A stretch of DNA of 64,000 bases from the NCBI RefSeq assembly GCF_041886205.1, contig NZ_CP169029.1; one strand, given 5' to 3'. The position numbers were made by a program. This document shows positions 58,201-61,200 of this stretch, in pieces. How positions within the stretch are numbered: the first letter of the stretch is position 1; every line of letters begins with the position of its first letter. This DNA comes from Escherichia coli (GTDB taxonomy: Bacteria > Pseudomonadota > Gammaproteobacteria > Enterobacterales > Enterobacteriaceae).

Positions 58201-61200
58201 CCGGATCAAACTCTTCGCTATTGCAATACTAACCAAAATCATCAATTTGACAGCGATTAACCAGAATAATAGTATACTATCACCAGTAAGAAATTATCGT
58301 TATTTGTAGCGATACATATTATATATATATCATTCTCAGGTGCGTACATGATTATCAACCAGGTACCTATAAAAATAAAAATCTTCATCTTTTTATTTTC
58401 ATGCATCTCTATTATATTTTTGTTACTGCATGAAAATAATGGAATATACATAACACAAACAACACAAATAAGTTATAGTGTTTTCATTATTGGGCTTTTT
58501 TTCATAAACCTGATGATTTTTATTTTTCTATTGCTTTACTATGTTTCTAATCAGAGACAAAGTTATCTCTTAATTCTTTCATTCGCGTTTTTGAGCAACA
58601 CGTATTATTTATTAGAAGTGGCTATTATTTCTTTATCTCCGTTAGGTAACGATTTATCTACAATCTATCAGAAATCAAATGATATCGCAATATATTATCT
58701 ATTCCGTCAGCTCAGCTTTATATCTATAATCTTTCTGGCTGTTTATTCCACCAATGTTAAAAATAAAAGTGTTTTAGAAGATAAAAGAAACATAATAATT
58801 GTTGTTTTGTCAATATTAATTCTTTTTATTACTCCGTTTGTAGCAAAAAATCTAAGCAGTGACAATATAAAATATAGTCTTAATATTATACAATACTCGC
58901 TGAATCGTCATTTGCCGACGTGGAATATCGTGTACACCAAAATAATATCAGTATTTTGGCTTGTATTACTTATCAGCTCATGCATCAGCATACGTAATTA
59001 CTCAAAAATATGGTTGTGTATAATACTTATTAGTATAGTGTCAGTATGCAATAATCTAATTTTATTGTATTTTATTGATAAATCCCATCCTGCATGGTAC
59101 ATGACAAAATTTCTTGAGTTGATATCAATGATTTATATCATTTCAACACTCATGTATTATGTTTTCAGGAAATTAAATCATGCTAATCATATGGCAATTC
59201 ATGATCCACTAACGAATACATACAATAGAAGATACTTTATTGACTCATTGAAGAATATATCAAAACACCATGATTTCTCAGTAATAATGTTAGATATTGA
59301 CAGTTTCAAAAGCATCAATGACAAATGGGGGCATCATATGGGTGATCAAGTCATAGTAATGGTTACCAGAATAATAAAAAAATCCATCAGGAAAGAGGAT
59401 ATATTAGGGCGCTTAGGCGGTGAGGAGTTCGGTATTATCATTAAAGGTAATACTCAAAAGCTCTTGCTATCAATTGCAGAGCGAATCAGAAAAAACATTG
59501 AAGAGCAATGCTCGGAAAAATTATTATCGCATGGACCTGAGAAAATAACTGTCAGTATTGGTTGCTTTACTTCAAAAGAGAATAATCTCAGCCCATCTGA
59601 AATGTTAGTCAATGCCGATAAAGCGTTATATCAAGCCAAAAGAACCGGAAAAAACAAGGTGATAATTCACTCAAAATAAACACCTTTTTAAAATACAGCC
59701 CCAATAAACTGCAGAATATTATCCCATATAATATCCTGCAGTTCGTAATGCACTATTCGATAATGGGTACTGTTGGCCATTCAATATCCGGTGCAGTTGT
59801 TGTATTAACACGGTTCAGCAACACCCGATATTTTTTCCAGGCTTCCAGCAATGAGGTTTCTTCCTCCGTTGCGATCTCCAGATCTACAGCATCCTGAAGT
59901 GGCGCTATATGCTCACTGGCTACCTGCATCAGGCTGTTTTTTGTTTCTTCCGCCTCCCGGATCCGGAACAGTTTTTCTGCTTCCGTATCCTTCACCCAGG
60001 CTGTGCCGTTCCACTTCTGATATTCCCCTTCCGGCGATAACCAGGTGACATTTTCCGGTAACGAGCCAAGTTCAGAAATAAATAACGCGTCGCCGGAAGC
60101 CACGTCATAGACGGTTTTTCCCCGATGATCTTCAACGAGATGCCACGATGCCTCATCACTGTTGAAAACAGCCACAAAGCCAGCCGGAATATCTGGCGGT
60201 GCAATATCGGTACTGTTTGCTGGCAGACCTGTATGAGGCGGAATATATGCGTCACCTTCACCAATAAATTCATTAGTTCCGGCCAGCAGATTATAAATTT
60301 TTATGGTCCGTGGTTGTTCACTCATTCTGAATGCCATTATGCAAGCCTCACAATATAGTTAAATGCGATGTTTTTGACGGTGTTTTCCGCGTTACCAGCA
60401 GCGTTAACGGTGATGGTGTGTCCATGTGAACCAATCGCAACGGAGTGCGTGTGTGCACCAATACCGACAGTATGTGCGTGTGCACCTGCAGATGCTGCTG
60501 TGCCGGACAGTGAGTGGCTATGGTTACCATCTGTACTGGTATTAGCTAACGCCCCCGTAGACATACCTACTGAGCCTTGTACACCCCAGGTATTTTGACC
60601 TGAGCTTGTATAACCATATTGATAAGTATCTTTAAAAACACTGGGGTTAAATCGACGGCCATCTCTATGGCTGTGATTACCAGCTGCATTCGTGCTGCCA
60701 CTTAAACTATGGGTATGATGCGCACCAGTGTTATTCGTGGATTTAGTGCCGTAATCAAACGACGATGTGGTTTTCGTCCCCAAATCAGTACTGGATGCGC
60801 TGGCGCTGTGGGTATGCGATTTTATGCCGTCCTGTTCCTGAGACAATACGGCACGACCACTGGCGGGCTTGCCCTTAATCGTCCAGCCACGCATAGCTGA
60901 ATGACGTCACCAGCCCCAGTGTGTCCGTAAACTCATAACGGTATTTCACGTTAATCCCGTTCAGATCATCACTGCCGGGGACGTTCGTCGAGGCATGAAG
61001 ATACCCCGCGCTCAGCGTGGACTGATGTTCAGACGCCCATGCAGGCGCACCGGATACGGCCAGACAAATGGCTGCGGACAAAATTGCTGCACAAACTTTA
61101 CGCATAATTACCTCTCGCTTTTCTGCAATAAAAAAGGCGTCATTCCTGACGCCCTTTATTGGGGTTATAAATATTTCAACGAATACTGATGCCGGAAGCG

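Follow-up and report, generated by a model that had tools for sequence, protein, structure and literature searches.

A 3,297-bp microhomology deletion joins lom to stf in a defective attLambda prophage of Escherichia coli at a recurrently used stf breakpoint

Introduction

How did the beginning of lom come to be joined to the end of stf at the edge of a lambda-like prophage in Escherichia coli, and does the joint represent a new arrangement or the scar of a lost segment? The locus lies within a stretch of 64,000 nucleotides (contig NZ_CP169029.1 of RefSeq assembly GCF_041886205.1), referred to here as the window. The original prediction, made from the sequence alone, proposed a lom-stf deletion junction at a TATGC microhomology, with Lom intact for about 72 codons and then joined to the last roughly 185 codons of stf, and with a fortuitous start for the stf fragment; that many independent deletions end at this stf breakpoint was no part of the prediction. 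In bacteria, pseudogene deletions are reported to be flanked by microhomologies of 2-11 nt (PMC6054270), and lambda recombines with the stf and tfa genes of the defective prophages Rac and Qin (PMC3945230). Our comparison with an intact relative, with other carriers of the joint, and with other truncated copies of stf indicates that the lom-stf joint is an ordinary microhomology deletion scar, a gene remnant rather than a new system. The position of its stf end constitutes a separate lead, which is set out below together with the explanations that it invites.

Results

The rightmost 6 kb of the window constitute the end of a lambda-like prophage inserted at attLambda, between ybhC and ybhB-bioA (Table 1). 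Over 23.3 kb, the window and the complete genome of E. coli wlxctx60, a strain whose source was Japanese black bear faeces, differ by 2 mismatches. In wlxctx60, the prophage measures approximately 18 kb and is defective, with no head genes and few tail genes left. It is a mosaic that combines DLP12-like nin and lysis genes with a Rac-like trkG/ynaK block, and the RefSeq annotation of this genome lists lom, J, I, and the 3' end of the stf piece as pseudogenes. The I gene, located upstream of J' on the minus strand, is truncated too. The stop codon of stf' and the start codon of tfa overlap by 1 nt. Just upstream of the lom ribosome-binding site, a G+C-rich hairpin followed by a run of T residues looks like a terminator between J and lom, as judged from its sequence.

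Table 1. Positions of the genes, gene remnants, and joints at the prophage end of the window
Feature	Position	Strand	Remarks
bioA	55667-57067	+	
ybhB	57126-57602	+	
lambda att core GCTTTTTTATACTAA, 15 bp	57693-57707	-	Right prophage end, adjoins ybhB-bioA
MASE4-GGDEF diguanylate cyclase gene	58348-59679	+	Low-G+C cargo gene between tfa and the prophage end; family marker
tfa	59753-60337	-	Intact, 194 aa, chaperone for tail fibre assembly; Pfam Caudo_TAP
stf' remnant	60337-60894	-	185-codon ORF; from ORF list, Pfam, and alignment to the parent
lom' remnant	60875-61105	-	76-codon ORF; 72 Lom codons plus WLDD-stop
Deletion junction	60891-60895	-	Microhomology TATGC (GCATA on the plus strand), present once here and once per parental site
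G+C-rich hairpin (61136-61153), then T6 on the gene strand	61130-61153	-	Between J and lom
J' remnant	61176-63396	-	Tail tip protein without its N-terminal part
Second deletion junction, I'-'J	63397-63398	-	About 1.5 kb gone; 2-nt microhomology TA

The parents of the joint can be read in an intact relative, the prophage of E. coli 120899 (L005), which is approximately 50 kb long, almost full length, and likewise located at attLambda. This prophage carries the GGDEF cargo gene and the Tfa protein found in the window (Tfa is WP_000885606.1 in both wlxctx60 and 120899), and its stf (1132 codons) and lom (199 codons) are intact. Alignment with blastn yielded two blocks, one pairing window positions 57429-60895 with L005 730-4193 at 99.6% identity and the other pairing 60891-61598 with L005 7486-8193 at 99.4% identity, so that homology to the intact lom and stf genes is interrupted at the joint instead of continuing through it. 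The two blocks share 5 nt, and the window is without 3,297 bp corresponding to L005 4194-7490, which comprise lom codons 73-199, a 64-nt spacer, and stf codons 1-948. A three-way alignment, written in gene sense, shows ..TTCAGC[TATGC]AGGAGAC.. in the lom parent and ..CCCTGA[TATGC]GTGGCTGG... in the stf parent, the shared pentanucleotide falling on codons 71-72 of lom and codons 948-949 of stf. Because the sequences flanking TATGC mismatch between the parents on either side, the microhomology is exactly 5 nt and no filler DNA is present, which places the predicted junction exactly to the nucleotide. Random lom/stf joins simulated on the real parental sequences shared at least 5 nt in 0.6% of cases (P=0.006), indicating that the observed overlap exceeds chance expectation.

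The expected extent of the two remnants agreed with this alignment almost throughout. Lom retains 72 codons and then continues out of frame as WLDD-stop. The 185 codons attributed to stf were found in the window, but the corresponding tail of the parent has 184, the window carrying one extra His codon in its HxH repeat (GAHHTHS versus GAHTHS in the parent). The comparison with lambda that the original prediction had proposed was informative on one side only: lambda stf has GATATGCGAGGCTGG at this place, but lambda lom, a different allele, does not contain TATGC at that position, so an alignment to it would miss the microhomology; lambda lom was therefore set aside as a comparator. Across E. 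coli, stf is continuous through the breakpoint in 3,676 of the 3,712 genomes that carry it, taking the best copy per genome.

The lom gene of this prophage encodes a 199-aa Ail/Lom allele distinct from lambda's own lom, and lom' differs from the parent gene by 3 nt. Whereas the intact parent matches the Ail_Lom Pfam profile over positions 1-199, lom' matches positions 1-74 of 199 and falls short of a full-length family match. The remnant is thus predicted to comprise the signal peptide and about two strands, from which the 8-stranded barrel cannot form.

The predicted fortuitous start of the stf' ORF proved to be a native internal methionine of Stf, Met949 of 1132. In the parent, Pfam places the N-terminal domain PF08400 at residues 1-134, Gp34_trimer at 663-762, and Collar (PF07484) at 907-954, and the fragment therefore begins approximately 6 residues before the end of the collar. 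Its domain content, read directly from the Pfam matches, is the Phage_fiber repeat alone; PF08400, the shaft, and the collar of a lambda-type Stf are absent. Over its C-terminal 231 residues, the parent aligns with the crystallised tip of T4 gp37 (PDB 2XGF, E=7e-86), and this alignment spans the fragment, which retains the HxH needle and the receptor-binding tip. T4 gp37 and the fragment have the HxH repeats and the C-terminal motif in common, but the crystallised piece of gp37 includes a collar domain and the window fragment is nearly without one. In lambda, the end of Stf consists of a collar, a six-stranded needle, and an OmpC-binding head (PMC7291167), and by homology stf' would correspond to the His-rich needle and the head, or receptor-binding tip, of the side tail fibre. 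Its neighbour tfa has an intact ORF and an intact Caudo_TAP domain. Since stf' lacks the N-terminal attachment domain, no mounting on the virion tail would be expected; the predicted product cannot be fitted to a virion, and the prophage itself, to judge from its gene content, can no longer make a tail.

The signals for expression of stf' are predicted to be weak. A promoter scan of the gene strand found no sigma-70-like site ahead of lom. Before the ATG at 60894 stands the lom-derived, Shine-Dalgarno (SD)-like GGGGCTGGTGA, which has an anti-SD pairing energy of -6.6 kcal/mol and ends 13 nt upstream, a poor spacing. The lom' ORF has a good SD and its stop codon lies 15 nt downstream of the stf' ATG, which makes termination-reinitiation conceivable. 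Automatic gene callers call the stf' ORF, and PGAP calls no such ORF.

Inheritance of the joint was evident from its carriers. Among 5,426 complete E. coli genomes, an unbroken match to the joint occurred in wlxctx60 only; the whole-query matches designated H5, H6, and EC01 proved to be stf-internal deletions with other joints and were discarded. An exact 32-mer across the joint had no match in JGI metagenome contigs. The exact 76-aa chimeric Lom' protein was encoded on five contigs from other datasets, four of them Logan run assemblies, with one of these recurring in six samples, and the fifth a metagenome assembly from ENA, and wherever the contig was long enough the gene order was trkG - ParB - K' - I' - J' - lom' - stf' - tfa - GGDEF - ybhB - bioA. 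Four of these contigs were at least 99.9% identical to the window, while the short ENA contig was 99.2% identical, with its differences concentrated at the 3' end of J. In one carrier contig, or sublineage, a further 771 bp had been lost. The occurrence of the same joint in a complete genome and in other datasets identifies it as a real scar passed on clonally, not an assembly error. It is specific to one lineage and is always found in the approximately 18-kb defective prophage. The stf' ORF and tfa were intact in all carriers, an observation that would also fit retained function; the carriers are 99.9% identical, which leaves no power to detect selection on stf' or tfa. An independent, in-frame fusion of lom (117 codons) to stf (THSLSG...) occurs on 22 contigs of a sister lineage within this prophage family.

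The stf end of the joint recurs in other deletions. At least 14 distinct junctions read at the DNA level begin their stf-derived sequence at one T/A step before Met949 (here and below, a slash marks the joint). Their partners are lom, J (two sites), K, Z, capsid E, the terminase region (two sites), an internal stf site, stf nt 200, and several unidentified sequences. For instance, unrelated DNA is joined to stf at GGGT[TA]TGCG in the Qin prophage of TA8571 and four other complete genomes, and stf nt 200 is joined at ..GGGATT/TGCG in H5 and H6. Approximately seven additional Met949 junctions, with unrelated partner genes, were recognized at the protein level. A look-up of 184-residue ORFs starting at Met949, which samples only the roughly 80 nt between Met923 and Met949, returned 20 loci with varied upstream neighbours and 17 distinct junctions. 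In 10 of the 17, stf DNA starts within 1-7 nt of the ATG and always includes the T at -1; four begin at TACCCG, 45 nt upstream, one begins at TATCCG, 24 nt upstream, and two resemble frameshifted full-length genes. The clustering of junctions inside the Met923-Met949 interval is far from uniform.

A homology search with the fragment, which gave an independent sample, revealed in-frame chimeras of the form x/MRGWTIKG with ten different partners. Three of these, tail protein Z, K, and J, were read at the DNA level as well; terminase A, ParB, DUF1441, lysozyme, and an internal stf site are among the remaining seven. Chimeras were also joined at x/YPKL (three partners), x/YPSG (three), and x/THSLSG (four), with single cases elsewhere, and nearly all of these positions are T/A steps in the DNA. 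Two other positions were reused, namely stf nt ~200 (GGA/TTCCCGCC) in H6, EC01, and L028 and a lom site (GGCGGGT/GTGGCT) in L036 and L033. In the complete genomes, the 100-nt segment that flanks the breakpoint on its retained side has 5,622 occurrences, compared with 5,336 for the 100-nt segment on its deleted side, from which it follows that about 5% of copies end or diverge near the breakpoint.

Where both parents were readable, the exact overlaps at Met949 were GATA, TA, GATA, ATA, GATAT, TAT, TA, CTGATA, TATGC, and TA. In a scar sample that was opportunistic, 15 of the 18 scars with an overlap of at least 2 nt contain TA, compared with 3.3% expected when joins are drawn at random from the same sequence (p~4e-20). 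With the Met949 site removed, the count is 6 of 9, and the TA-containing scars include joints outside stf, such as I'-'J in the window. The motif GGWTA, chosen post hoc and counted on either strand, was present at 14 of 26 parental sites as against 11.5% of all TA sites. Inspection by eye for Chi-like sequences, Xer/dif arms, REP-like pieces, resolvase half-sites, IHF, DnaA, Fur, gyrase and topoisomerase I consensus sequences, RuvC/RusA preferences, EcoRV star sites, and alternating purine-pyrimidine (Z-DNA-prone) tracts yielded no motif fitting all sites. A literature search for TA-biased illegitimate recombination or recurrent stf truncation returned nothing relevant. We treat the TA and Met949 regularity as an unexplained lead, not as a result.

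Discussion

The scar in the window very probably records a single spontaneous microhomology deletion of 3,297 bp, clonally inherited, in a lambda-like prophage at attLambda. Its flanks are collinear, the repeat is kept once without filler, and no mobile element or recombinase target accompanies it; in the ORF list and annotation, no IS, mobile element, or recombinase gene occurs at the junction. The ancestor would have had the gene order J-lom-stf-tfa-GGDEF, which 120899 keeps today. The TATGC copies in lom and stf would have been joined by homology-independent illegitimate recombination, with loss of the DNA between them, through either replication slippage or template switching or through RecA-independent end joining of a break. 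The sequence fits slippage and end joining alike, and the enzymology and timing of the event are given here as we infer them. In a passage citing Chayot 2010, such deletions are linked to the A-EJ pathway of E. coli (PMC6054270). The out-of-frame join would have truncated Lom and deprived Stf of its tail attachment, shaft, and collar, and the scar would be one among several deletions that produced the present prophage. Most simply, stf' and the intact tfa are leftover DNA in a scar that probably has no function, and they could act as a recombination substrate for incoming lambdoid phages.

Evidence that speaks against this explanation includes the reuse of the stf breakpoint by many independent deletions, which makes an account based on a random break and a chance microhomology incomplete. 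It is a serious possibility, though one we hold with reserve, that the position of the stf end was dictated by a hotspot at which DNA is broken or joined in a sequence-directed manner, namely the T/A step in CTGA-TA-TGCG before Met949. TATGC would then be a chance extension of an obligatory TA overlap, and the deletion account would be refined, not replaced. The unrelated left partners of the DNA-level junctions that meet at this one step, together with the roughly seven further partners seen as in-frame x/MRGWTIKG fusion proteins, argue for such a hotspot, as do the presence of that TA in every exact microhomology read at Met949 and the excess of TA among the scars as a whole. However, no E. 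coli or lambda enzyme of such a preference was identified among the candidates considered, which were invertase sites, Chi, Xer, REP, and Rpn nucleases. Most of the examples come from the look-up of ORFs starting at Met949 and hence from its interval of about 80 nt. The motif was searched for post hoc, and selection could mimic the pattern. Rpn nucleases were rejected as a cause, as they are reported to act without sequence specificity.

Under selection of that kind, scars would persist or recur because the unit that they leave, the Stf tip from Met949 plus Tfa, benefits the host or the prophage. In the window, stf' would be expressed from the transcription and translation signals of lom via coupling to the lom' ORF. 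We consider this unlikely. Every carrier has an intact ORF and an intact tfa, but the carriers are too alike for purifying selection to be tested. In many contexts the junctions pile up right at the start codon, the pattern expected of selected gene boundaries, yet other recurrent joints cut deeper, for example x/THSLSG with its four partners, and so the Met949 unit is not obligatory. Although the good SD of lom', its stop shortly past the ATG, and the SD-like sequence upstream would suit translational coupling, the 13-nt spacing is poor, and an SD-like sequence is missing from most other Met949 junctions. Likewise, the fragment comprises the needle and head of a gp37-type tip, but the collar domain is absent and a free fibre tip has no signal peptide or known activity.

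Invertases switch tail-fibre 3' ends in Mu, P1, and e14, and this precedent would favour a junction made by a site-specific recombinase, either a Pin/Gin-type invertase or lambda Int at a secondary site. In addition, pin genes adjoin tfa in Qin-type relatives, and invertase-driven exchange at stf is mentioned in PMC3945230. This highly improbable reading is already contradicted by the locus, where no Hin/Gin/Pin-type crossover core of the AAACCnnGGTTT type was found within the prophage end and no second copy of the site was found, and where no 26-bp crossover site with a AAACCnnGGTTT-like core and an adjacent serine recombinase gene is present. The tfa gene of the window has no neighbouring recombinase gene, the partner sites have 2-6 nt in common and nothing more, and the pix sites of e14 lie approximately 50 codons upstream of the equivalent PDLRG motif. 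As for lambda Int, the att core is 3 kb off and no endpoint falls there. Least credible of all is an assembly artefact, a chimeric join made at a repeat of the prophage. E. coli genomes do contain several copies of tfa and of the stf 3' end (median of 3 places per genome), and such repeats often break assemblies. However, the identical junction is present in the complete circular genome of wlxctx60 and on five more contigs, which stem from different runs and assemblers and of which one was present in six samples, and a 5-nt overlap is not one on which a k-mer assembler would join.

The deletion account places the scar among known cases. Like the deletions between short direct repeats in E. coli that are attributed to slippage or A-EJ, it has collinear flanks, has lost the intervening DNA, and has left one 5-nt copy; the scars of this prophage family differ in their strong excess of TA-containing microhomology and in their reused nucleotides, features that, to our knowledge, lie outside the textbook account of short-repeat deletion. 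As in the cryptic prophages of K-12 (Qin, Rac, DLP12, and e14), head and tail genes have been lost and a 3' piece of stf remains with tfa near the end, whereas the prophage of the window sits at attLambda, contains the GGDEF cargo gene, and shows junctions of its own. In lambda PaPa, a single-base frameshift in stf (orf-401/orf-314) caused the laboratory loss of side tail fibres with all DNA kept. There too stf is inactivated, tfa is intact, and the side fibres are dispensable; the window, in contrast, has lost 948 stf codons and most of lom.

The scar alone matters little. It documents the whittling of one attLambda prophage, in which the stf' and lom' ORFs are remnants. Its wider interest lies in the stf breakpoint, which falls into a recurrent group of prophage deletion joints centred on TA. 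We tentatively entertain the generalization that the T/A step before Met949 is a true deletion hotspot and that the erosion of lambdoid prophages joins DNA at TA, possibly in a GGWTA-like context, or else that a fibre-tip and Tfa module has been selected repeatedly; in that case, the TATGC joint would be one instance of a rule. Should the pattern hold, it could reveal that the machinery by which bacteria delete DNA has a sequence bias, which bears on genome reduction and the decay of pseudogenes, or alternatively show that hosts repeatedly keep the fibre-tip and chaperone module, and a genuine TA-joining process would suggest a nuclease, a recombinase, or a bias of repair that has so far gone unrecognised.

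Deletion scars and their breakpoints

Our comparison of the deletion scars of the prophage family, which set the I'-'J and lom-stf (60891-60895) junctions of the window and loci L009-L041 against locus L006, revealed TA within the microhomology in 15 of 18 scars, versus an expectation of 3.3% (p~4e-20). The context GGWTA, a motif chosen post hoc, occurred at 14 of the 26 parental sites. At I'-'J, the second deletion junction of the window prophage, approximately 1.5 kb is absent relative to strain 120899, which has an intact prophage at attLambda, and to lambda; the exact overlap is TA, and the parental sequences are GGATA/ACGG in I and CGTTA/CGG in J (slashes mark breakpoints). 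In L010, one lineage carrying the same lom-stf junction, a further 771 bp equivalent to window 63098-63868 has been lost across the I'-'J joint with an overlap of CA, showing that erosion continued after the lom-stf deletion.

The T/A step before the stf' ATG (window 60895/60894) was the stf end of many independent deletions with unrelated partner genes, comprising at least 14 at the DNA level and about seven more at the protein level (L003, L014-L034, L038, L040 and L041). Minor breakpoint clusters in stf were located at TACCCG (-45) and TATCCG (-24), numbered upstream of that ATG, and before the residues THSLSG further into the fragment. Two other positions were also reused by independent deletions, namely stf nt ~200 (GGA/TTCCCGCC) and the lom site GGCGGGT/GTGGCT (L036, L033), each serving at least once as the left end and once as the right end.

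Coordinates of the features compared
Feature	Position	Strand	Remark
I'-'J deletion junction	window 63397-63398	minus	comparison with strain 120899 and lambda
MASE4-GGDEF diguanylate cyclase gene	window 58348-59679	plus	low G+C; cargo between tfa and prophage end
Rac-like block	L002 (wlxctx60) 23100-26255		past the window end
Extra His codon	window ~60714-60722	minus	in-frame 3-nt gain, CAT repeat
Region compared with RefSeq annotation	window 60337-61105 = L002 19638-20406
ybhB deletion	L005 (strain 120899) 730-742 = window 57207-57429		alignment blocks overlap by 13 nt
stf nt ~200 reuse	L003 ~4195, L008 ~3143, L028 ~277

Neighboring content and the stf remnant

The MASE4-GGDEF gene was conserved across the attLambda prophage family, in intact and defective members. 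The defective prophage of wlxctx60 has a Rac-like block in place of the head and tail genes K to Nu1. This block includes trkG, a fragment of ynaK (ParB family) and a 'GREB1-related'/TAGT-domain ORF that is fused to K. Strain 120899 carries its own 222-bp deletion within ybhB.

Lom(117 aa)::Stf(THSLSG...), a 243-aa in-frame fusion protein (P0053; L036/L037) independent of the window junction, was found on 22 contigs of the same attLambda/trkG/GGDEF prophage family; its Lom signal peptide is still in frame with a fiber-tip fragment, and public records call the fusion an Ail/Lom family protein.

The HxH repeat of the window's stf remnant has one additional His codon relative to strain 120899 (GAHHTHS versus GAHTHS). 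In the RefSeq record of wlxctx60 (NZ_AP045833.1), PGAP assigns 520 nt (window 60586-61105) to a lom pseudogene described as 'frameshifted', and just the final 204 nt to a fragment of a hypothetical protein, indicating that the stf remnant is mostly unrecognized in public annotation.
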